Shown one piece after another: positions 10,578 to 63,021 of a stretch of 63,806 nt of DNA; the stretch's first letter is position 1; every line of letters starts with the position of its first letter. This DNA comes from Folioceros fuciformis (lineage: Eukaryota), in contig JBNGIO010006112.1 in assembly GCA_049999805.1 (NCBI GenBank), forward strand, positions 1 to 63,806, given 5' to 3'. Under the pieces are notes generated by a model, which saw only the letters and a program-made list of their open reading frames with translations, made no database searches and was not told where the DNA came from. The position numbers were made by a program, and so were the translations under genes.

Positions 10578-13500
10578 TCACTCCTCTTCATCTCCTCGTT
10601 CTTCCTTGAAAAGCTTGATCATGTCATCAATCCGGAGAATGGTGATGGCTGCTTCGGTAGCAAACTGGCCGCAAACATTGCTTATTGTTAACACTCGACA
10701 AGATGACAATCGGGACTACTCTCATCACATGCACAAGAGTTGAAAAGACCAAGGCGGCTAGAAGGAGATGCACCTGTATGATCTTCACTTTACTCATCAT
10801 GGGCTCGATAACGCCGGCTTCAATATTATTTCTAACAGCACCCTTCACGAGGTCCAGTCCCGTTCTGCAGTTCACAGTGCGTGGTTCACACTGGGTTAAC
10901 AGCCTGAGTGCTTTCGTACCGGCCTTGTTGTTCGCAGGCCTGGAACATAAAGTGAGGGTGTTGTTTGATACATTACCCACACAAATGATGCTTGTCAGCT
11001 TTTGTTTGTGCGTTGTGGTGGTAAGCACGCAGTCTTGCCACCAGTTCAGTAGCATCCTTTGCCGCATTCACAGCTAGTACCTGCAGCCGAAGGAACAGCA
11101 AAGTGGGTCACATCTAAAACATCCCATTTCCCTTCAAGACAGAAACGTCCTGGAAAACATTTGGCTATGTTCTTACAAACCTTTGGTATAATGAGAAGTG
11201 CCTCGGCAAATTCAGCAATGGCAAGCTGTTCTCGAGAACCCAGGGTAGTGGCCAAATTCTCAAGATAAACCGACAGAGCAGCTTCAACTGCACCGCCTCC
11301 AGCCACCACCTGCAAGCATTGAAATGAGCGTTCACATCCAGCATGCCTTTCTGCGATGACATTGAAATGTGAATCTAGTGAGACTTACCAGATTCGACTC
11401 CAATGTCCGTTTCACTATGCACACAGCATCATGGATGGAGCGCTCCATCTCATCCAGCATATGATCGTTGGCTCCCCTGAGGATAATCGAGACCTACCCA
11501 CGAGCATGCACCTGAGATAACAACAAAGTGCTCCTACCATACAGCTGCAACATGGAGATGCAGAGGAGACGAGGACTTACTGCACGCGAGCTTTTGGCCC
11601 CTTTGATTAGAAGGACATCATCATCTGCAACACGTTCCTCCACGACCTCCTCAGCTGACCCTAGGAAAGATGGATCAAATGTTTCGTCTCCCTCCATGTC
11701 CCCAAAGTTGAGAATCTGCAGGGCACGGAAAACGTTCATCACATTTTAACATCCTGAAGAAGTTCTCTCTGAAGCCACAGAATAGCTTTACCTGGGTCGC
11801 TCCAGTTGCCTTTGCAACATGCCTCAAGTCTTCTTTTTTAACCCGACGAACAGCTATGGCTCCTGCTTCCACAAAATACTGCAGATGCAACAGGGCATGG
11901 TTTATGCCATGCAACTAAGACGTCTCACACGTCTTAACACCGAAACTACCAGAGAATATGCACATACCAACCTTGAGAGCCATATCATCAATGCCCTTGG
12001 TTGTCAATATGACATTTGCACCTGCATCCAGCATTCTCTGGATGCGCTCCTTTGTAATGTCTGATTCCCTGAAAGATCCAAAAACACACCAGTAAGGATC
12101 CTGCTGGCTCAAACCGAATCTACTACTAGCAAACTTTTCAGCTCCAACCATACCTTGCTCGAATATTCTCCAGCTCACGAGGATTAGTTACAAGGACCTG
12201 CACACCCATCTGCATTTTGGTCCTTTGGAGATTCAGATCTAGGCAGGCTATCTTTGCCGACACTATGCGCTTGGGCATCTGTTGAGAAGCACGCCCTGTG
12301 TTGAGAGCATATCCGTTCAGAAGGTAACTCTCGCGTGCACTCTTTCCATGTGCCTTCAATATGTTGATAGACTGCAGGGAGACATCCAAATTCTCACCAA
12401 AGGAGCCAGCAATTGTCAACCAGCACGTAAAAGAGAAAGAAGATTCTGCAATCATGGTGAGGCCAGGCTAGATGGACATACCTTGATTGGATACTTGACT
12501 TCACCCCTGTCATTGGTTGCCTTCACAGCAAGCACTGCGTCTACAACCTGCAGATATCTTTATTTAGGTTTTCTCCGGCAATGCACCTCCTTTAAGGTAG
12601 TGTCAGACAAATACCAGTTTTGAAAAGAATTCGCTGTCTGGACCAATTATCTTGGATGACATACTGGTTTTCGCACAGTTGACCAAAGGTTCCCTCCCCA
12701 ACTTCTCAACCTGCATTAGGGATTCACGTCTGAGAGCAACATACTGTACGCTAAAAACAGAATCAAAATTTATCACACAACGGCACTTCAAAATCGTAGC
12801 AGATTGCATTCGTAGCCTTTGAGATTAGAGCATACTGGACCTTCAAGGTAAGCTTCTCTTCGATAAACTTACAGCCTTCTCGCATTGCAAGCTGTGACGC
12901 CCAGGAAATAACAATGCTCACAAGTTAATCGCAATGGTAATCGAAGACAAACGTAAGAAACTGAGACACATCAAAGACGGTGACAAAACCAACAGCAGAA
13001 AATGGGCGCCTACCCTGTACCCACTGATAATTGAAGTTGGATGAATCTTGTTCCTGACCAGATCGTTTGCTCTCTGTGATTAGACATACCGCAGTTACTA
13101 TATAGTTCAGACCTTCCAAAAACGAAGAGCTTTCTCCAGCTTTGGGATAAGAAAAGCATACCTTCAGAAGTTCAGCTGCAATAATGACGACAGATGTCGT
13201 CCCATCTCCCACCTCTCGATCTTGTAACTCGGCTAACTCAACCAAGACCTGGGCAAGTACAGTTTTGCATCATGAATAGATCCTCCAACATGTAAATGAA
13301 AAACAGCCAAAACGCCACTTACCTTAGCAGCGGGATGTTCAACTTCAAGCATTTTCAAGATAGTGGCCCCATCATTAGTGATTGTGACATCCCCAATATC
13401 ATCAACAAGCATCTGCAAGTACCCCACAAACAATCAAGCTGTGATAGTGCCACGTTCATTTCGCTTCCGAGTCAACAATCCTGCGGTACCATCTGGCATT

Positions 13501-13812
13501 TACAAGAAAAGCGCACCTTGTCCAGACCAACTGGTCCCAAGGAGCTCTTCACGATGTTGGCGATTGCTTGGCAGGCCATCACTAGATTTTTTTAAGTAAA
13601 CAAGAACGTCAATCAGGACACGAGACAATTGACTCGCTTCCACAGTCCAGGGCCACTGCCCACCAGATCATAACCAGAATCGGAACAAGACTTCACTGAA
13701 AGACGAAGTCGAGGACCACTTCACAAGAAACGAATTTGTTACCGTTCTGAGTGCGCACGTCCTGGCCAGTTTGCCGCTCTCCCATGAGCTCCAGAGACTG
13801 TCCCGTCATCAT
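10578..13812 (-). CDS. CCT1: T-complex protein 1 subunit alpha (CCT1), multi-exon
   Basis: [54 protein letters not shown] and the C-terminus [18 protein letters not shown]...EEE*. Confidence 0.95.
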
Positions 13813-14209
13813 GGCTGCAGCCTGGCTGCTCAATGGAGCAGCAGCAGTACGCTAGGTGAAGAACGCTGCTTTGGACCAAAATCCAGTGATCTCAATTCTG
13901 GCGGTCTAATGTATGGCTCTCGGGTTCAAACTTGCCAGCACGACTCTGCTTCAGGCTGGCTGGAGTCGAGTCGATCTAGCAACCCGGGCTGTGCTGGGCG
14001 GTGAATGAGCTCAACAAACCAAAATTCTGGGACCTGAATTCTGGCGGGCTACAAAGTGCTTTAGGGTTCGAACTTGGCCGCAAGACTGAGTTCCAACTTC
14101 TGGAAACCACGACAGGGTTCGAACTAAGCGAAGAAAGTCTTTTCTTGAGTGGCGTCCCGTGAGCAAATTTTTGGTATGTTTCGTGGTTAAGCTTCGCGGG
14201 CAGGAAGGG

Positions 14210-15400
14210 ATGTCGCGAAAGGCATTGGCCGCGTTCGTCAGTCGCAGTGGAGCAGGATGGCGGAGTTCGTGGAGCCCTGGCCATTCCAGACCGCAGGCCA
14301 CCGCTGCCAATGGAGCCATGGCCGCTTTCAGTAAGTGAATTCTCCCAACGAGTTCTACTGACGGTGTTCCGTTCAAGTTCGATTGCCAGTACTCTAGTCT
14401 CGTGCCGCTCGGTACTTCATCAACAGATTTGCACAACTCTGCAGATCTCGGCTGGTCTGAGTGAAATGAGCTGAATGTTTCGCCTACTAACTATTTCTCC
14501 CTATTTGCAAGGTTCCCGCACGTTTTCCGGGAACTTGGAGGTGCCGGCGTTGGCAGATCGAGACAGGGAGCCAGCCAGACTTAATGTAATCGCTTCCGAT
14601 GTATTTCTATCTGCCAATTTGTGAGTGGCGTCTGCAGAGTTGCCTTGCTGGATATGGGTCGATGTTCCAGCGTGTCTTCTTAGGTTGATCTTTTGACTCC
14701 ATACCAGAGGGGCGAGAGAGCGAAGCATATTGTTGGAGCCGCCGGTGTCTGGAAGACAGTTCTCATGACACAAGTCATGAACGACCTGTCCAGAACTCAA
14801 GGTCTGTATTCTTTTCACACAGGGGAAAGATACTGCCAGGGATACCGTAGCGTTTATAACCAACCCTGTTCTGGCCGTGCAGTGAGTTTTTCCTCACATC
14901 GGGGGACTGGTCAGCTTACTCAGGATGGGAACGCTATCTATAAAAAGATTAACGACGACAGTGATTCCTCCAAGGTTTGCAGAATATTTTCGTGTGCACA
15001 TGTCTCGTCACTTTTCAGACCAGTGGTTAACATGTTTGTTTGTGACTGACAGGGTGAGCGACAGTTTGGAACAGCAGCACCCAACATCAAAACAAATCGA
15101 CCGTTGTCGCCGCACCTGACAGTTTACGCCCCACAGAAGTCCTCCGTCACGTCCATCACAAATAGGATCACTGGGGCTCTGTTAAGCGGAATAATCCTGG
15201 GTGGTGCTTTTTTCACGAAGGTCGGTGATACTAGCCTCTCGTTTTACCCGGTGTATCAGCTGGCGTTTGCTGTGTCAAAGCTCCCTACTTGGTTGTATCT
15301 TGGCGTAGGGAATTTCGCGATTCTGGCATTGCTCTACCATGTTTTCCATTCCCTTCGTCGTGAACTGCAGCAGTGGGGTCTGTTGAAGTTTAAGGTGTAG
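14210..15400 (+). CDS. SDH3: Nuclear succinate dehydrogenase subunit 3 (SdhC) with ATP2-derived N-terminal extension; exons ~14210-14330, 14512-14585/14600, 14684-14801, 14883-14974, 15053-15400
   Basis: Last exon NRPLSPHLTVY...SSVTSITNRITG...LLYHVFHSLR is SdhC/cytochrome b560. Exon 1 is Arg/Ser/Ala-rich like a mitochondrial presequence. All GT-AG junctions are phase-compatible and give one stop-free ORF. Confidence 0.85.
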
Positions 15401-15690
15401 GTTTGTCAGTGCGCCACTTTCGAGTGGAATGGAAAACTTGGCTGTGTGTCCAAGCCCGCGCTGAGTGCTGTCGTCTCTGCCCAACTTGCTTTGTAAATAC
15501 TCACGTCGAGACAATAGCGCGCCATGGTCTACTGCTGTTTATGAATCATGCTCAATGCTAACAAATTGATGTGATAATTTGCGACGAAGGTGCCATTGTT
15601 AGATGTATTAAGTCGACATTCAAGCTTTTGATGAATGGCTAGTATTAGAAGATGGAAGAATGTACAACCAGTTGGTTATAAAATGACAAT

Positions 15691-18543
15691 TCACATCCGC
15701 CTCGTTTGCTTGGGTGGAGGCTGATAATAGCCCTGCGCCGTGCCAGGAGGCTCTCGCCGGCGAACCTGAGAAAAAAACAAAAGTGAATAACGGTGAAATC
15801 AAACTCTCCTGTTCGCAGACCACGAATGCTCATTGAAGCGGACCTGTTGTTGAGGAAGTCTGTTTCCGAAAACGTGGTTCACTCCCATGCCGGCCACACC
15901 TTGCGCGTTGACACTGAAAGCGTTGGAGTTGTGCACTCTTTGCATTCCTTGCAAGGAGTGATGAACTGAGCCAGCCGTTGCAGCAGCAGAAGCTGCAGCT
16001 GCTGAATTGGCAGCAGCCATCTGGTGATGTCATTCAAGGTTAGACTTCTACGATCGAGAACCTGCTGGCTGCTACAAGCACGGAGCAGGTGTTGAAGAGG
16101 GATACCATGCTGGGCTGTTGGTAGCTGCTTGTGCCATCAAAATCCGTGGAGTAGTCCACAGGCCGGGGGGGATAAGCCACAACTTTCTCACCTGGCTGAC
16201 CTGGAACGAGGGAACTAAAGGATACAACGTCAAGAGCTGGAACTACGACGACCGCCTGCATTTTGTGAGCAGCGTTCACACAATACAGCAATGTAAAATA
16301 CGAAGGCACGGGACTTACTTGCGACCAGGCAGTGGTTCGGTCTTGAAGTACCTGGATACGCAATTCAGCTTCCCACAATAAGCACACAACAGAAGCACCA
16401 GACAGCTTTTGATTTAAAACTACCTTCTACCTTATGCAGATTTGTTAAAGAAAGACGAGAGCACATACTCATGCTCCAATGCTTGTGCTGCGGATATTCT
16501 CTTCAGCGGATCGTATCTGTAGACATTGACACATACACGATGAGAGGCAGAGGGAGAGCATCGTAGCTCTGATCAAGGAAACTCTTGTGCGTCCTTACTC
16601 GAGCATCCTTGCAAGCAGATCATAAGCAGGGTTCTTTACTGCAGCAGTTGGTGACAGCTGCAGCACATTGTGAAGACCCGCATTTTCACTGTCCACAGAT
16701 CCAACTTGCAACATGTTAAACACTAGGGACAGAAGTGTCAGCACATTGTGAAGATCCAGATTTTCACAGTCCGCAGATCCCAGTTACGATACGTTACAAA
16801 GTGGGGACAGAACTGTCAGGTAGTGAGTGGAAGCTCGAAAGCACTTACTACTTCCGTCCTTGAATAAACTGTCGATTTGTTTGCCAGTGTGGTAGATTCA
16901 GAAGTGTTGGCCATCTGTCACCAGTTGGATGTCCTACATTTGTCAACCTGACTTGTGAGTAAACACAAATACCATCATGCCATTTTCCTGAAACTTGCCG
17001 CCCCATGCCAGGCAAGACCAAAGACTTTGTAGACTTACCCAGCACTTTGAAAATCTTCTCCAGCTGATCCAGCTGTCAGGCATAAATGGCTAGATTGGTA
17101 AGACGTCACGTAGAAATCTGCAACTCAATCTAGGTGACATTTTTAGGCCAGAAACAACCTGAAACGGATTTGGGGTACTTTTGTCTTCTATGCCTTGAAA
17201 GAGTGGCTTCAACGTGAGCAACTCCGCAAAAATGCATCCAACAGCCCAAGTGTCTGCGGATGACGGGCCGACCAAGAAATGTTCAGGTTTGTCAACACAG
17301 TGCCACTCCATGAAGCACACGCTATAAGGGTCGTACCGACAGCACTGGTGTAATGTTTGGAACCAAGAAGCAACTCAGGAGCTCTATACCATATGGTCAC
17401 AACAACCTGCGGCACGGGATATCTCACGTAGTTAGAGTGCGTCAATAAGGAATCCATGTCAGCTACAAACCCTTGACATGCCATGTGTACTAAACACTAT
17501 AAAGCCAATTGAAACTGCCTACAGCATTTTTATGACGCATGTCATGAGAGAAATTGCGATGAGACAAGAGTTTCATACCCCATTTTCGCTGAGGGGCTTG
17601 AGGGGACCTTGATATATCCGAGCAAGCCCAAAATCACCAATTTTCACAACGCCTTGTTCTTCCCCCTCACCCATCACCTGTGACCTTCGAGAGTAAGCAA
17701 CGATTACATGCACAGACACAGAAGCCCATACAAGATAACAGCTGTGATCTAGTTCCCAAGGATTTGTCTTATATCATAATTTTACCAACCAAGATATTTG
17801 ACGGCTTCAAGTCCCGATGAACAATCCAATTGCTGCACCAAAAGAAGAATGATGTGGGACCAGCACAGACACCTCACAAAAGGAGTATTCCACTCAGTAT
17901 AAGACAGCAGATAAGGCTCAACGGTAGAGCAACTGCGTCTAATAACCTGTGCAGATAATTGAGGCCATTCAGGATCTGCCAAAGCAGAGACTTTACGGTG
18001 TACTGGCTGATGGAAAAGTTCAGCTTCTCCCGATGGTGTCGGATGATTTCCTGTCGTTCAAAACTCAGGCTGATGAGGAATTCAACAATCCACGATTTCA
18101 ACAAACACAGCCCAGCCCCACTCTAGCCCCCAGCCTCAGCACTTACATAGAGGTCATGTTCTGCATAGTCAAATGCCAGGTACAAAGACATGTCCACATA
18201 ATTAATGTGGACATTCACCAGCTTCACAATGTTTTCATGGATACACTCCCTCAGCAACTGCAGCAGGTCATTTCCAAGTCAGAATCGGAAACAACACAAG
18301 AGAAGTGCAACAAGCACGAGGAGAGGAGCATGATACCATGATTTCCCGGATAGCGGTGGGGGATATGCCATCGCCCTCCTTAGACTGCTTGAACTTCTTG
18401 ATGGCAGTGCGAACAGTGTGGCCCCGGACAAGCTTGTTTTTGGCCAGATACACCAGCCCGTACGTGCCTTCGCCAATCTTGCCCACAACTTCGTATTGCA
18501 GCTGCCAGGCCGGTTTAACTCGCTTGCCATGGGTATCCACCAT
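15691..18543 (-). CDS. CDKE1: Cyclin-dependent kinase E (Mediator CDK8), multi-exon
   Basis: [11 protein letters not shown], the CDKE-diagnostic [37 protein letters not shown] and the C-terminus PPPKQTRRM*. Confidence 0.93.
16661..16819. repeat. 78-bp tandem duplication spanning a CDKE intron/exon boundary
   Basis: CAGCACATTGTGAAGA... starts at both 16661 and 16739, and the two copies align throughout. Confidence 0.8.
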
Positions 18544-29918: not shown

Positions 29919-30318
29919 NNNNNNNNNNNNNNNNNNNNNNNNNNNNNNNNNNNNNNNNNNNNNNNNNNNNNNNNNNNNNNNNNNNNNNNNNNNNNNNNNN
30001 NNNNNNNNNNNNNNNNNNNNNNNNNNNNNNNNNNNNNNNNNNNNNNNNNNNNNNNNNNNNNNNNNNNNNNNNNNNNNNNNNNNNNNNNNNNNNNNNNNNN
30101 NNNNNNNNNNNNNNNNNNNNNNNNNNNNNNNNNNNNNNNNNNNNNNNNNNNNNNNNNNNNNNNNNNNNNNNNNNNNNNNNNNNNNNNNNNNNNNNNNNNN
30201 NNNNNNNNNNNNNNNNNNNNNNNNNNNNNNNNNNNNNNNNNNNNNNNNNNNNNNNNNNNNNNNNNNNNNNNNNNNNNNNNNNNNNNNNNNNNNNNNNNNN
30301 NNNNNNNNNNNNNNNNNN
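29919..30318. other. Assembly gap (400 N)
   Basis: Run of N. Confidence 1.
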
Positions 30319-56850: not shown

Positions 56851-58104
56851 CGGATGGAGAAGATTTCTCCAAGTTTGTTAAGGCCTAAGATAGAAGGCAT
56901 GTTATTGCTACAAGAATAGAAGTAGCCTCTTATTGCTGCTTTCGGCACAGGTTTCCACGTCTCTAAAGAGGGGTGTTGGGCAGGGTTTCAAGGCTTTGCA
57001 GACAGTGTTGGTAAAGGTGTTGGCTAACCTTCCCTGTAAAAGGTTTAGAGAACGTTGATTGGCCTCTGTAGAAGGTTACGAACCCTATGTCGTCCTATGC
57101 GTCTTGTCTTGGACGACATAGGGTCCAACTTCTCCATAGGGTCTTAGCCAACGCAGTATTAAGGAGGACACCGCAGCACAGCACTCGACATGCGGCTTCA
57201 CCACTTGTAGGAAGGCCTTTTCACTCTACGCTCGCCCTGTCGTTGGTGAGTTTTGAAGTTCTGAACGCAATCCATGGTTTTTGACACATATGATTGGAGA
57301 CTTGGAGGCCTCCTCCTCATGTCCGATGCCCCTCCTTGGATGTTTCCTTTTCCTTCTCTTGTTGGTAGATGGGTTTGCATCTCAGCTCAGAATCACAGTG
57401 AACGGCAGATAGAGCTTGCGCATGGGAAAGGCTTCAGCCTGGCTCCCATACATGGGAGCGAAACTCTGAAATAAGGAGATAAGAGATGAAGCATGGGAGC
57501 TGGTTTGGCTAGGAGGATTTGCAAATCTCACTTCCCTCACGCGTTCACACTTGTTCGCCTGCTGCTGGAGCTTTGAAGTTCCAGGGCTTTGCATGTCATG
57601 AACTTCAAACCAACGGGTTGCAGGCAATGGTTGAAACTGGGTATTGAGTTGTCTGTCGAAGGACAGGATGCCAAAGAAGCGAAGTAGGCTGGAGGCGAAG
57701 CTGCGTCAAACCAGTGGTGTCGAAGAGGACAGAGCAGCACGCCGGGAATTTTCCACTTCAAATTCTGCCATCCATCCTGCTCTCAGGAAATTAGTGTCGC
57801 GTGCGCTCTGCTGTGATCTCTGATCCATGGAATTCATATCCAGTGCGCTCGCTCTGGCTTTCTCTGAAAACATGTACTCCATACACTATAGGTCAATTTT
57901 GGATAGCGAACGTAGACTGGAGATGGCCTCGACCTGGGCGCCTCCAGTCCCCCGCTTCCTGCTCCAGGCTCCCTCAACACTGCGGCTCGCTCCCCCTCGG
58001 ACCGAAACTATGCAGTCGGAGCTCCCGCTCGAGGCTAGCTTGACGGCGCAGCCCTAATTCTGGCAACAAGGAGGATGTAGGGCAGCACAGACTAGGGGCG
58101 CATT

Positions 58105-60183
58105 ATGTTCGGAGTACTGTGTCCGGGTGGCGATGGCAGCACCTGGCGCGGAGTGGCAGGGCCCGGGGTGAGAAGTCGGAGCTCTGGCAGCAGCGCCTTG
58201 CCCATGCTCCATGTCAGACGCCTGGCGGGTCTGGCCGCTGCAGCAATCGGCAGAGGGGTCTGTGGAGAGGTCCTTCGTCTCAAGGGGAGGCCGCTGAGCC
58301 ATGGTGTGTCCTTTGGCAAGCGGAAGCTCAAAGTTGTGAGTGCTTTAGAGCGGGAACCCAGCAGCACCATCGTCCAGGAGAGACTGGAGCAGCATGGCAT
58401 CGTTCTGGAGTCTTACGAGGCAGGGCAGAAGCGTGTCATCTGCCCCAAGTGCGATGGTGGCAGCACCAGGGAGGCTAGCTTGGCCATCTTGGTGGACCAG
58501 GATAGGCAAAATGCTACATGGCTTTGCCACCGGGGAACATGTGGCTTCAGAGGGGGTACTAGGAGTCCCGGTGTTAAGAGGCAGAATAATGGAGCTGCTG
58601 CTGCCACCGCTGTTGCTCCTGCAGCTGCAGCTGCAACAGAAGCACCTGTGAAGAGGGAGATGTCCTTGGATAATCTCAACCTGAAACCTGTCACTGCTCC
58701 GATTCTGTTGAACTTCTTCAGCAAGAGGAAAATCTCCAAGGCTACCGTGGACAGGAATGGCGTGATGCAGCAAGGGTCAGGGGAGTTCGTAGCTGCCGCT
58801 TTCGTGTACAGGAGGAACAAGCAGATTGTAGCTTGCAAGTTCCGGAGAGCTCAAAAGAGGTTCACGCAAGTTCCAGGGTGTGAGAGGATCCTGTACGGCT
58901 TGGATGACATCAAGGGGCAGTCGGAGATTGTGATTGTGGAGGGCGAGATGGATAAGTTAGCCATGGATGAAGCTGGCATCCGTCACTGCGTCAGTGTACC
59001 TGATGGAGCTCCCCCCAAGGTGTCCGAACAAGAAGTACCTCCGCCAATGGAGGACAGGAAGTACCAGTATCTGTGGAACTGTAAAGATTATTTTGCCAAG
59101 GCAACGAAGATCGTGCTGGCCACGGACAACGATGTGCCTGGACAGGCTCTGGCGGAGGAGCTTGCAAGGCGGCTGGGCAGGGAACGGTGCTGGAGGGTCA
59201 CATGGCCGGAGTTTGAGGGAAAGGCTTGCAAGGATGCCAATGACGTGTTGGCCAACCTTGGCAAGGACCATCTGGTGCGCATGGTGGCGGAGGCGGAGGT
59301 ATATCCTATCCGGGGACTCCTGCAATTCTCGCAATTTTTCAAGGAGATCGAGGACTACTATTACCTGCGACTTGGGGATGAGAGGGGGATCTCGACTGGT
59401 TGGCCTTGTCTGGACGAGGTATACCGGGTAGTGCCTGGGGAGCTGACGGTGGTGACAGGAGTCCCTAATTCTGGCAAGAGCGAGTGGATAGATGCGCTTC
59501 TGTGCAACCTGAACCACCAGCGGCAATGGTCTTTTGCCCTGTGCTCCATGGAGAACAAGGTGAGAGAGCATGCCAGGAAGCTTCTGGAGAAGCACATGCA
59601 GAAGCCCTTCTTCGATGCTCCCTACGCCAACTCCATGCCCAGGATGACCCCGGAGGATTTGGCTGTGGGCAAGCAATGGCTGAACGACAACTTCTATCTC
59701 ATCAGACACGAGGACGATGAGCTTCCGTCCATCAGCTGGGTGCTGGACCTGGCCAGGGCAGCTGTGATGAGGTATGGCATCAGGGGACTGGTGATAGACC
59801 CATACAACGAGCTGGACCACCAGCGACCCACCAGCCAGACTGAGACGGAGTATGTGAGCCAGATGCTAACCAAGGTGAAACGTTTTGCCCAGCACCACGA
59901 TTGCCACGTGTGGTTTGTGGCCCACCCAAAGCAGCTGCAGGTCTGGCGAGGCGAAGCTCCTGGGTTGTACGATATCAGCGGCAGTGCACATTTTGTGAAC
60001 AAGTGCGACAATGGCATTGTTATACATCGAAACCGGGATCCTGAGGCTGGGCCTCTGGACCGAGTGCAGGTGCTGGTCAGGAAGGTACGCAACAAGGCTG
60101 CTGGAACCATCGGTGACGCTTATCTGCAATATAACAAGGTCACTGGAGAGTACATAGATGCGCAGAGGGACTCAATATCTTGA
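58105..60183 (+). CDS. TWINKLE: Twinkle organellar primase-helicase (T7 gp4-like), intronless, 692 aa
   Basis: Zn-finger CPKC...CHRGTC, TOPRIM IVEGEMDKLA...ATDND, Walker A GVPNSGKS, VIDPYNEL and ISGSAHFVNKCDNG, with a transit-peptide-like N-terminus. Confidence 0.96.
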   Translation: MFGVLCPGGDGSTWRGVAGPGVRSRSSGSSALPMLHVRRLAGLAAAAIGRGVCGEVLRLKGRPLSHGVSFGKRKLKVVSALEREPSSTIVQERLEQHGIVLESYEAGQKRVICPKCDGGSTREASLAILVDQDRQNATWLCHRGTCGFRGGTRSPGVKRQNNGAAAATAVAPAAAAATEAPVKREMSLDNLNLKPVTAPILLNFFSKRKISKATVDRNGVMQQGSGEFVAAAFVYRRNKQIVACKFRRAQKRFTQVPGCERILYGLDDIKGQSEIVIVEGEMDKLAMDEAGIRHCVSVPDGAPPKVSEQEVPPPMEDRKYQYLWNCKDYFAKATKIVLATDNDVPGQALAEELARRLGRERCWRVTWPEFEGKACKDANDVLANLGKDHLVRMVAEAEVYPIRGLLQFSQFFKEIEDYYYLRLGDERGISTGWPCLDEVYRVVPGELTVVTGVPNSGKSEWIDALLCNLNHQRQWSFALCSMENKVREHARKLLEKHMQKPFFDAPYANSMPRMTPEDLAVGKQWLNDNFYLIRHEDDELPSISWVLDLARAAVMRYGIRGLVIDPYNELDHQRPTSQTETEYVSQMLTKVKRFAQHHDCHVWFVAHPKQLQVWRGEAPGLYDISGSAHFVNKCDNGIVIHRNRDPEAGPLDRVQVLVRKVRNKAAGTIGDAYLQYNKVTGEYIDAQRDSIS

Positions 60184-61663: not shown

Positions 61664-63021
61664 TTAGATTTGCATTGCCTGAGCATGGTAAGTGTCCAGC
61701 TCGGCGTCCAAAACCTCAGCACTCTTGACTACTGCTGGAGGTCTTTGGCTGCCTCCTCCTCCTCCTCCTCCTCCTCTTCCTCTACCACGTCCACGACCGA
61801 ACCGCCTTGGCTGAAAACCATTTGTAGCCCTGAAAATTTGAGACGAACAAGACATGGTTACACAACAACACTAGGATAGCCAACACACCATGAACTAGAC
61901 AAACGAGACGAGTGTCTGCCACCCTACCCAACAACATGCTTCCTCTCCATAGAGGCTGCCGCTGCTGCTCGTGCAAAACCAGGGCTGCATGACAGACAAC
62001 ATAGATGCCAAAGCCCACTGATGACAACAACGTAGATACCACCAATATACCAAAACCATCCACCCGGTGCCGTAATAGACGAAGGAAAACCAAACTATCC
62101 TTCATGCAGTTGCAAGCCTAGGGTTTAAGAGGGAGAAGGACATACGTCACCACCACCGTTCGCCCTCGTCTTCCACCCGCTGCCGCATTCCCATTCACCG
62201 CCCGTGCCTCTGACCCTACCGACGTCAGGTTTTTGCCTATGAGCTCGATGGCCATGGGCTTGCCATCAAGTTGCACATTGTTGTACCGCTTGAGCGCAGC
62301 AACAGCATCTGGTCTCCGGGCAAACACCACCTCCGCAGTGCCCTTAGAGCGGCCGCTTCTATCGTAGTGGATAGAACACCTTTTCAAATCCCCAACTTCG
62401 GAGAATAACTCCTTGATATCTTCGTTCGACACTCCAAAGTCCAAATTGGACACGTACAGCTTGGTACCCGTCTCTATACCCGCGGCTGCAGCTGCTGCCC
62501 TGCCTGCCCCCTCCTCAAATAAATCATGTCGCCACACCGCATCAGTGGCTCGCCGGACATTCTGCAATCACAAAACCCCAGCGATGAGCTTCCCCTGAGC
62601 CAGGGACGAGGGTGCCATATTAGGGCAACAGGCAGTGCCACACACAAGCAAGGCACAGGGCGGGCAAGAAGCAGGCAGGCCCAGCAGATGCCAGCAAGAG
62701 GAGTCACGAACCACACACCTTAGCCGTGAAGTAGGGCACAGCCCGTCCCGCTGCCCGATTCACTTGTCTCCTAGCAGGGCCCCCGAAGCCGCGGCCAGCG
62801 AATTTGCNNNNNNNNNNNNNNNNNNNNNNNNNNNNNNNNNNNNNNNNNNNNNNNNNNNNNNNNNNNNNNNNNNNNNNNNNNNNNNNNNNNNNNNNNNNNN
62901 NNNNNNNCCCCCCCCCACCTGCCCGGGCCCCGGCCCGCCCGCCGCCCCCGCGCCCTCCCCTCGTCTTCTTCTTGTTGTTCTTGATGATATCATCCAGGCT
63001 CATGTTGAGAGACGCCTCCAT
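61664..63021 (-). CDS. ALY: ALY/REF (THO complex subunit 4) mRNA export adaptor; exon 1 interrupted by the gap; in-frame upstream ATG at 63063 possible
   Basis: LNMSLDDII, RRM TKLYVSNLDFGVSNEDIKELF...YDRSGRSKGTAEV, and C-terminal KSAEVLDAELDTYH. Confidence 0.93.
62808..62907. other. Assembly gap (100 N) within the GC-rich RGG-coding region of ALY
   Basis: Run of N. Confidence 1.

Follow-up and report, generated by a model that had tools for sequence, protein, structure and literature searches.

How does a mitochondrial gene that has moved into the nucleus come by the promoter and the targeting signal that it needs there? In the textbook route, both are borrowed from a gene for another mitochondrial protein; among seed plants, the example of this seen most repeatedly is sdh3. 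The question is raised anew by a nuclear SDH3 (SdhC) gene of Folioceros fuciformis that lies on contig JBNGIO010006112.1 of assembly GCA_049999805.1, which was analyzed over its positions 1 to 63,806 (the window; 63,806 nt). A sequence-only reading of this DNA had proposed that an sdh3 copy came to lie behind exons and introns left over, in decayed form, from a duplicate of ATP2, the gene for the beta subunit of the mitochondrial F1-ATPase. Homology, intron positions and phases, and a spliced contig bear out the core of this proposal. We consider it likely that the locus is an expressed nuclear SDH3 gene and that it arose by capture of an organelle-derived exon downstream of a portion of a genomic ATP2 duplicate.

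Structure and splicing of the gene

We read positions 13200-16400 and listed the stop-to-stop frames. An in-frame open reading frame (ORF) model with five exons (14210-14330, 14512-14585, 14684-14801, 14883-14974, and 15053-15400) can be drawn, in which all introns begin with GT and end with AG and whose product comprises 250 amino acids. The open frame begins at position 14090 and its first in-frame ATG is at position 14210. The five-exon, in-frame structure that ends in a single SdhC exon, as the sequence-only reading had described it, can thus be built without loss of the frame.

An RNA-like contig of 3079 nt from the sequencing run X1 matches this gene with 0 mismatches across five pieces and four GT..AG joints. 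When aligned to positions 13900-15800, its pieces are 14252-14330, 14512-14585, 14708-14799(+2), 14881(+2)-14972(+2), and 15051(+2)-15768, and its joints are 14330>14512, 14585>14708, 14801>14883, and 14974>15053. Because four canonical introns are missing from it, this contig can only have come from spliced RNA; at least one transcript thus carries the ATP2-like exons and the SdhC exon in one piece. Leader and organelle-derived block are joined in mature mRNA in this single run, whose label as RNA is a guess and which contained 0.53 of the sampled words; the study's two other runs contained almost none of the sampled words, and nothing in them aligned at 85% likeness.

Three of the four joints are those that had been predicted from the DNA (14330>14512, 14801>14883, and 14974>15053), while the predicted acceptor at 14684 is not the one found in the RNA. 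There, exon 3 starts at position 14708, which is 24 nt (eight codons, in frame) past 14684. Hence, the transcript model encodes 242 amino acids, and the codons for VDLLTPYQ (14684-14707) are intronic in that RNA. A minor isoform that uses the 14684 acceptor may exist; it is compatible with the data, since contigs drop rare variants.

The SdhC exon

The identity of the last exon as SdhC, already recognized in the sequence-only reading, is secured by a match to the Pfam family Sdh_cyt (PF01127) above the curated threshold (52.1 bits against a cutoff of 25.8; E 8.5e-14), with exon residues 14-110 falling on profile positions 3-97 of 122. A full HMMER scan of 1.84 billion representative proteins yielded 364 proteins with an E-value of 0.001 or less. 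Closest among them is P0001, an ORF of 98 amino acids that is 68% identical and has the same C-terminal end; it is followed by proteins of 185-340 amino acids that carry the SdhC domain C-terminally. According to exact look-ups, the nearest named relatives are the nuclear SDH3 proteins of seed plants (Welwitschia, Gypsophila, Cryptomeria, Vigna, Euphorbia, and Arachis). In the 63,806 nt of the window, tblastn detected this one SdhC copy and one ATP2-like place, and no second SdhC copy.

In a 13-sequence alignment (A1), nine columns are invariant, and the window protein conforms to each of them (S19, P20, H21, Y25, S34, R38, G41, Y95, and H96; numbering of the exon). They include the elements S-x-x-x-R (S34, R38) and Y-H (Y95, H96), each invariant in 13/13 sequences, the window protein counted among them. 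We take the Ser and Arg of the first element and the His of the second to have the quinone-site and haem-ligand roles of their counterparts in Escherichia coli SdhC. The segment IKTNRPLSPHL of the window protein aligns with MKINRPLSPHL, the start of mitochondrial-type sdh3 proteins of 128-131 amino acids (P0002, P0003). The organelle-derived block therefore begins at the old start-codon region of sdh3, and it is a single exon.

Two transmembrane helices are predicted from hydropathy, at residues 166-184 and about 204-228. The third helix of SdhC is absent; the window protein ends where mitochondrial-type sdh3 goes on into helix three. An end after the second helix is common, in alignment A1, to the window protein, P0001, and the proteins of Vigna, Arachis, Gypsophila, and Welwitschia. 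In flowering plants, a truncated SDH3 is on record in which SDH6 makes up for the missing segment (PMC5855863, citing Schikowsky et al. 2017), and, to judge from the available text of that paper, the window protein and P0001 resemble this SDH3 in ending after the second helix. Since the 68%-identical relative shares this derived C-terminal end, the SdhC domain has been kept through divergence.

ATP2 ancestry of exons 3 and 4

Part of what precedes the SdhC exon is akin to a different mitochondrial protein. When the stretch 14684-14974 is read through in frame, its best match in the PDB has an E-value of 9.7e-7 (phmmer), and F1-ATPase beta subunits make up the first 56 of the 60 matches listed, the final four being CFTR. 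The best NCBIfam model is atpD, both for this stretch (E 1.1e-6; 27.7 bits against a threshold of 462.85) and for 14684-14801 alone (E 3.9e-5). A BLASTP comparison with a full-length ATP2 ORF (L044), which stems from a cDNA-like metagenome contig and carries PF00006 at 230.5 bits together with both flanking domains, gave an E-value of 2e-11 with 28/89 identical residues and placed a gap of 27-28 residues exactly over the 81-nt intron. Five ATP2 ORFs, compared by tblastn with the whole window, pointed to one place only (E 6e-8 to 1.8e-7). The similarity to ATP2 is thus significant and confined to 14684-14974. The sequence-only reading had held that exon 3 is homologous to F1-beta, that exon 4 aligns with the beta segment that follows, and that removal of 14802-14882 makes the two colinear with ATP2; these data agree with it on each count.

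Exon 4 on its own matches no family in a profile search. Its comparison with the 45 residues that follow the P-loop exon gave a score of 46 for a bacterial beta subunit, reached by 0/5000 shuffles, and scores of 52-54 for the five ATP2 ORFs, reached by 0/3000 shuffles. The bacterial reference was the canonical atpD of Priestia (P0182); a plasmid-borne atpD (L001, P0181) was dropped as a reference, as it lies in an alternate-type operon. An alternative alignment, in which the ATP2 likeness runs on through intron 3 (phmmer, and tblastn with three of five references), was rejected. The peptide read from this intron is not significantly like the bacterial beta subunit (p 0.15) or, in its in-frame translation, the ATP2 ORFs (p 0.5-0.8), and the earlier alignment of exon 4 is hence the right one. 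The idea that intron 3 and exon 4 form a tandem duplication was discarded as well (DNA local score 14 against a shuffle mean of 12.9; peptide p 0.13).

The ATP2 part has decayed considerably. Over the long form of exon 3 and exon 4 taken together, 27/74 residues are identical to land-plant-type ATP2; 7/8 residues are so in the fossil VDLLTPYQ. The Walker A motif GxxxxGK[ST] is not intact and reads GAAGVWKT, with Trp in place of the last Gly, just as the sequence-only reading had it. About 60 of the roughly 550 ATP2 residues remain in the window gene. Without complete nucleotide-binding, N-terminal beta-barrel, and C-terminal domains, the ATP2 part is a remnant and not an enzyme. A word search with the ATP2-like stretch for longer proteins, at E-values up to 10, found none. 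At the DNA level, the 118-nt exon shares 65-79 of 118 bases with ATP2 over 119 loci among the matches listed, a range within which the nearest neighbour is uninformative.

Exon length and intron positions shared with ATP2 genes

If the leader stems from a genomic copy of ATP2, its exon boundaries should be those of living ATP2 genes. We searched metagenome contigs with a degenerate pattern that covers a 16-residue motif of the mitochondrial beta subunit, and at least 120 loci matched. About 45 loci among the matches listed have only a short open frame around the motif, as expected for intron-bearing eukaryotic genes. After near-duplicates and very short loci had been dropped, 31-32 intron-bearing ATP2 loci were examined; five cDNA-like loci provided ORFs of 550-575 amino acids with presequences. 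The intron-bearing loci (L005, L011, L029, L082, and others) fall into at least two exon-structure groups, in which the exon after the P-loop exon ends after ..GEKQ or after ..EMIES.

An AG dinucleotide stands 3 nt ahead of the VDLL codons (ag/GTN GTN GAY.., the slash marking the exon boundary) in 33/33 matches from 32 ATP2 loci. The P-loop exon that begins there runs for 118 nt up to CAY G/GT, entering in phase 0 and leaving in phase 1. The stretch 14684-14801 of the window is likewise 118 nt long, has the same phases, and is bounded by tag/GTT GAT.. and ..CAAG/GT; one codon was lost near its start, which is offset by one gained before the P-loop. An intron follows the P-loop exon at the same codon and in the same phase as in the window in 29/31 ATP2 loci (51-567 nt long, many of 76-91 nt), the other two being without an intron there. 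The next ATP2 exon starts with ag/GT GGN TTY.., in a register equal to that of exon 4 in the window. In land-plant-type ATP2 this exon, of about 104 nt, ends in phase 0 after ..GEKQ; exon 4 of the window also ends in phase 0, four codons shorter, and it reaches beyond the exon end of the second ATP2 group.

Collectively, the boundaries 14683/14684, 14801/14802, and 14882/14883 coincide with those of the metagenome ATP2 genes in position and phase. This agreement in exon length, intron positions, and phases indicates that the ATP2 part entered the locus as genomic DNA, with its introns.

The 5' exons and the targeting signals

Judged by its composition, exon 1 resembles a mitochondrial presequence. 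Of the first 45 residues of the protein, 6 are basic and none is acidic, Ser accounts for 9, and Ala for 10; an acidic residue first appears at position 50. Among ten ATP2 N-termini, the best match of exon 1 is L044 (MSGRKALAAALR.. against MSRKALAAFVSR..), with a score of 46 that corresponds to p 0.015 in composition-preserving shuffles when the maximum over the ten references is taken. BLASTP with composition correction recovers a colinear piece at E 0.065. The notion that the ATP2 presequence was kept therefore finds a suggestive likeness in the shuffle statistics, and the BLASTP value falls short of establishing it. Within intron 1, positions 14343-14393 encode in another frame the presequence-like peptide SQRVLLTVFRSSS, which is not significantly similar to an angiosperm-type ATP2 N-terminus (tblastn E 0.23).

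For exon 2, the alignment to ATP2 put forward in the sequence-only reading is weak. The exon matches nothing in Pfam or NCBIfam on its own, and the proposed alignment with bacterial beta has p 0.12. Its phases (1 in, 0 out) equal those of an 89-nt exon that ATP2 has just ahead of the P-loop exon and that is recognizable by a GIK/GT donor with an AG 89 nt upstream in 28/29 ATP2 loci. In frame, exon 2 resembles this 89-nt exon with a local p of 0.016 (maximum over 19 peptides), a register picked after the fact giving p 0.0002 and the DNA level p 0.045. An equally good likeness lies out of frame, where positions 14537-14560 read GGAGVGRS, similar to the Walker A sequence GGAGVGKT (p 0.003 for the amino acids); the DNA of this stretch shares 18/19 bases with one GC-rich ATP2 locus, a value reached by 0/400 shuffles. 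This similarity is probably due to chance in GC-rich periodic sequence, and the stretch may alternatively be a frame-shifted copy of the P-loop exon. A third possible alignment, which is not significant, is offered by FLPI at 14494-14505, just before the exon-2 acceptor, as in ATP2 ..FLPIHREAP... Exon 2 may or may not derive from ATP2, since three mutually exclusive likenesses occur in a GC-rich, GNN-periodic sequence that is beyond simple shuffle models.

How much of the leader would be cut off after import depends on the site used by the mitochondrial processing peptidase (MPP). Its -3R motif is given as RX(F/Y/L)/(A/S)X in the available text of one source (PMC4986872). An exact fit is found at R-T-F/S (14517-14528 in exon 2; R43-T-F/S46), and it is the sole such site. 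The processing-like site R130-Q-F/G133 just ahead of the SdhC block, noted in the sequence-only reading, which proposed a cleavable leader of ~140 residues, lies far downstream of it and fits less well on account of the Gly at +1. If MPP cuts at R43-T-F/S46, mature SDH3 would retain the ATP2 remnant as a domain at its N-terminus, on the matrix side. This would accord with the 10 acidic residues in 46-127, a composition unlike that of a presequence, and with a frame that is open through all ATP2-like exons. Yet residues 46-127 are without support from conservation, no relative with this leader having been found; identity to ATP2 is down to 27/74 with a broken P-loop, and the RNA omits the eight best-conserved codons. 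We regard lasting retention of the remnant as possible, if rather unlikely.

Features of the locus and its surroundings

The coordinates of the gene and its parts are collected in Table 1.

Table 1. Parts of the SDH3 gene in the window. A slash marks an exon boundary.
Feature	Positions	Strand	Basis or remark
SDH3 gene with ATP2-derived leader exons	14210-15400	+	Five exons
Exon 1, 40 codons + 1 nt, from first in-frame ATG	14210-14330	+	ORF model; RNA over 14252-14330
Intron 1, 181 nt, GT..AG, phase 1	14331-14511	+	RNA joint 14330>14512
Exon 2, 74 nt, phase 1 in, phase 0 out	14512-14585	+	RNA joints
Intron 2 as spliced, 122 nt, GT..AG	14586-14707	+	RNA joint 14585>14708
Fossil start of ATP2 P-loop exon (VDLLTPYQ), preceded by ancestral-type acceptor tag/GTT	14684-14707	+	Homology; RNA joint at 14708
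Exon 3 as transcribed, 94 nt, decayed ATP2 P-loop exon	14708-14801	+	RNA; homology
Degenerate Walker A, GAAGVWKT against GGAGVGKT in ATP2	14735-14758	+	Sequence; alignments
Intron 3, 81 nt, phase 1, at ATP2 intron position inside Gly codon after AKAH	14802-14882	+	RNA joint
Exon 4, 92 nt, decayed ATP2 exon, phase 0 end	14883-14974	+	Shuffle tests; BLASTP; ATP2 exon ends
Intron 4, 78 nt, phase 0, presumed ATP2 intron that captured sdh3	14975-15052	+	RNA joint 14974>15053
Exon 5: linker, SdhC domain, stop codon	15053-15400	+	Pfam PF01127
11-codon linker of exon 5, with R-Q-F/G (MPP-like site) at 15059-15070	15053-15085	+	
SdhC domain, single uninterrupted block	15086-15397	+	
3' untranslated region within the same X1 contig	15401-15768	+	

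A gene for a CCT/TCP-1 chaperonin (13693-14096, - strand) lies head to head with SDH3. The X1 contig of this gene, which differs from the window by one T>C at position 14006, stops at 14096, which leaves 114 nt to the ATG of SDH3. This short distance makes a shared bidirectional promoter plausible, and we hold such a promoter to be at least as likely as one kept from ATP2. On the other side, the X1 contig of SDH3 extends past 15768; its loose end matches near 15846, skipping about 77 nt, and leads into a gene that converges on SDH3 from downstream. This points to 3' ends that overlap or to an intron in the downstream gene. Farther away, an intronless frame of 695 codons (58096-60183, + strand) encodes a Twinkle-type primase-helicase (Toprim and DnaB-like) whose nearest atlas clusters are streptophyte. 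Two runs of N, at 29919-30318 (400 bases) and 62808-62907 (100 bases), are assembly gaps, and an Rfam search of the whole window gave no match.

Comparison with known transfers

In angiosperms, 14 independent transfers of sdh3 are known, with presequences acquired from pre-existing nuclear genes (PMC4045975). Leftover parts of the host genes accompany sdh3 in some of them, hsp70 in Arabidopsis and hsp22 in Rhazya and Gossypium being examples besides others (PMC4045975; also PMC2631504). As far as the available text of these papers describes them, the sdh3-hsp70 and sdh3-hsp22 genes resemble the window gene in that an sdh3 block stands behind a presequence and the leftover of a gene for a mitochondrial protein, with one or more introns in the borrowed part. 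They differ in the donor, which in the window is ATP2. Furthermore, the window leftover comes from deep in mature ATP2 (the P-loop; residues about 209-280 of ~550), whereas the angiosperm leftovers lie just after the presequence, and, unlike in those cases, two donor exons and the intron between them are still recognizable. N-terminal extensions with foreign fragments also occur among the SDH3 relatives found in our scan: HSP70 in Cryptomeria (P0037; E 1.7e-12), a 2-oxoacid_dh acyltransferase in Euphorbia peplus (P0062; E 7.8e-10), and Aconitase_C in Vigna (P0052; E 2e-4, just below the cutoff). The available text of the cited literature holds no mention of 2-oxoacid_dh or Aconitase_C as donors of sdh3 leaders.

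Outside the angiosperms, sdh3 with a heat-shock protein leader has been reported from Cupressaceae and Cephalotaxaceae, together with intron gain in the transferred gene and an argument for RNA-mediated transfer from C-to-T patterns at editing sites (PMC8317393). The available part of that report describes the same gene and mechanism as we propose for the window, with a donor other than ATP2. ATP2 itself has served as a front-end donor, since the presequence of rice rps11-1 was copied from atp2 (PMC2631504). There, the recipient is a ribosomal protein gene and, in the text at hand, only the presequence is said to be copied; the window gene, in contrast, keeps internal ATP2 exons, and its link to the ATP2 presequence is its weakest part. 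Selaginella mitochondrial DNA is described as being without sdh genes, while Isoetes retains sdh3 (PMC5654404, as available). A full-text literature search, whose scope excluded most subscription journals and supplementary donor tables, found no ATP2-SDH3 pairing in print. Both halves of the pair have precedents, and the pairing itself is new as far as the searched literature shows.

Origin of the gene and fate of its leader

By the most likely route, an sdh3 sequence would have inserted into the ATP2 intron immediately downstream of the GFSVF.. exon, an intron that is in phase 0, as is intron 4 of the window gene. Transcription would start upstream of the ATP2-like presequence exon. Splicing would then join the presequence exon, the short exon of uncertain origin, the two decayed ATP2 exons, and the sdh3 exon, and the mRNA would yield the 242-residue precursor. 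This protein is laid out as a presequence-like N-terminus, about 80 largely ATP2-derived, non-catalytic residues, an 11-residue linker, and the two-helix SdhC domain. The N-terminal ~45 residues may act as a matrix-targeting presequence. A long soluble stretch may aid the import of a hydrophobic transferred protein, an idea that stems from work on algal nuclear-encoded respiratory subunits, and the ATP2 remnant could similarly, as a long leader or soluble spacer, ease the entry of the hydrophobic SdhC domain into the organelle. The remnant would be either removed or kept as a matrix-side tail, and the SdhC domain would then assemble into complex II.

Several observations weigh against this account. 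The Pfam family ATP-synt_ab (PF00006) stays below its cutoff (E 0.014; 15.5 against 29.5 bits; profile positions 5-40 of 213) and is slightly outscored by NB-ARC (E 0.0026). The splice sites of the metagenome ATP2 genes were deduced from sequence and tblastn boundaries, not from RNA, and the RNA support for the window gene is one contig from one run with a guessed RNA label, positions 14210-14251 lying outside its coverage. Exon 1 is only weakly similar to an ATP2 presequence (p 0.015; E 0.065), and the 5' end could originate elsewhere; exon 2, taken by itself, is not significantly ATP2-like and has three mutually exclusive weak alignments. The 135-residue leader of the long model is unlike all 180 proteins compared with it (phmmer, best E 3.1), neither a word search nor phmmer turned up a relative that shares the leader, and a word search, which is weak evidence by its nature, returned no longer relatives of the SdhC exon.

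The uncertain 5' exons admit the reverse order of events, in which a fragment of ATP2, consisting of two exons and their intron, was shuffled into the 5' region of an SDH3 gene already established in the nucleus, so that only 14684-14974 would be ATP2-derived. This would be in keeping with a significant ATP2 likeness at 14684-14974 only, exons 1 and 2 being unconvincing, and the divergent CCT transcript 114 nt away fits a promoter that was not brought along from ATP2. Against this order stand exon 1, which beats 98.5% of shuffles when compared with non-angiosperm-type ATP2 N-termini (MS(G)R(K/R)AL..), and the phases of exon 2, which equal those of the ATP2 exon preceding the P-loop exon; moreover, the published cases are read, in the available text, as an organelle gene inserted into a host gene (PMC4045975). 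We judge the reverse order to be improbable.

The clear decay of the ATP2 part might also be taken as a sign of a mosaic without function, in which an ATP2 pseudogene adjoins a nuclear copy of mitochondrial DNA and whose transcription and splicing are incidental. Such a mosaic is very hard to reconcile with a frame of 242 codons that is uninterrupted across four splice joints, with nine invariant SdhC columns kept and a 68%-identical relative sharing the derived C-terminal end, and with an X1 contig that is well covered and free of mismatches. Finally, an ATP2 likeness that is fortuitous or a generic P-loop match, with the upstream exons forming an unrelated leader, would fit the modest E-value of ATP-synt_ab (0.014), the similar Pfam scores of NB-ARC, AAA_16, and RNA_helicase, and the spurious matches that GC-rich GNN-periodic sequence yields (compare exon 2), but it is contradicted by beta subunits as the first 56 of 60 PDB matches listed, by atpD as the best NCBIfam model, by the beta-specific VDLLxPYQRG outside the P-loop, by the fit of exon 4 to the next beta segment (0/3000 shuffles), and by an exon length and intron phases identical to those of ATP2 genes, and we attach next to no credence to it.

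On the preferred reading, capture of the sdh3 exon behind part of an ATP2 duplicate, the locus could be caught at an intermediate stage in which donor exons are turning into intron. The 14683/14684 acceptor and the eight codons behind it are spliced out through the newer site at 14708, and the remainder of the ATP2 part might be kept in frame for the import of the hydrophobic SdhC domain, which would require a long soluble leader. We put this forward as a speculative and, on balance, doubtful proposal. If it is true, the length and solubility of the remnant, and not its sequence, would be under selection, and relatives would be expected to retain this exon skeleton while their sequences drift freely and their splice sites shift.

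The locus leaves the picture of the transfer mechanism unchanged and adds an ATP2-SDH3 donor-recipient pair to a known route. It provides a testable case of how much of a decayed host protein fits between a presequence and a hydrophobic membrane subunit. The entry of the donor part as genomic DNA is unusually clear, in that exon length and two intron positions with their phases match living ATP2 genes at a protein identity of only 27/74. Its particular value lies in this clean intron-position evidence and in the intronized fossil of eight codons.

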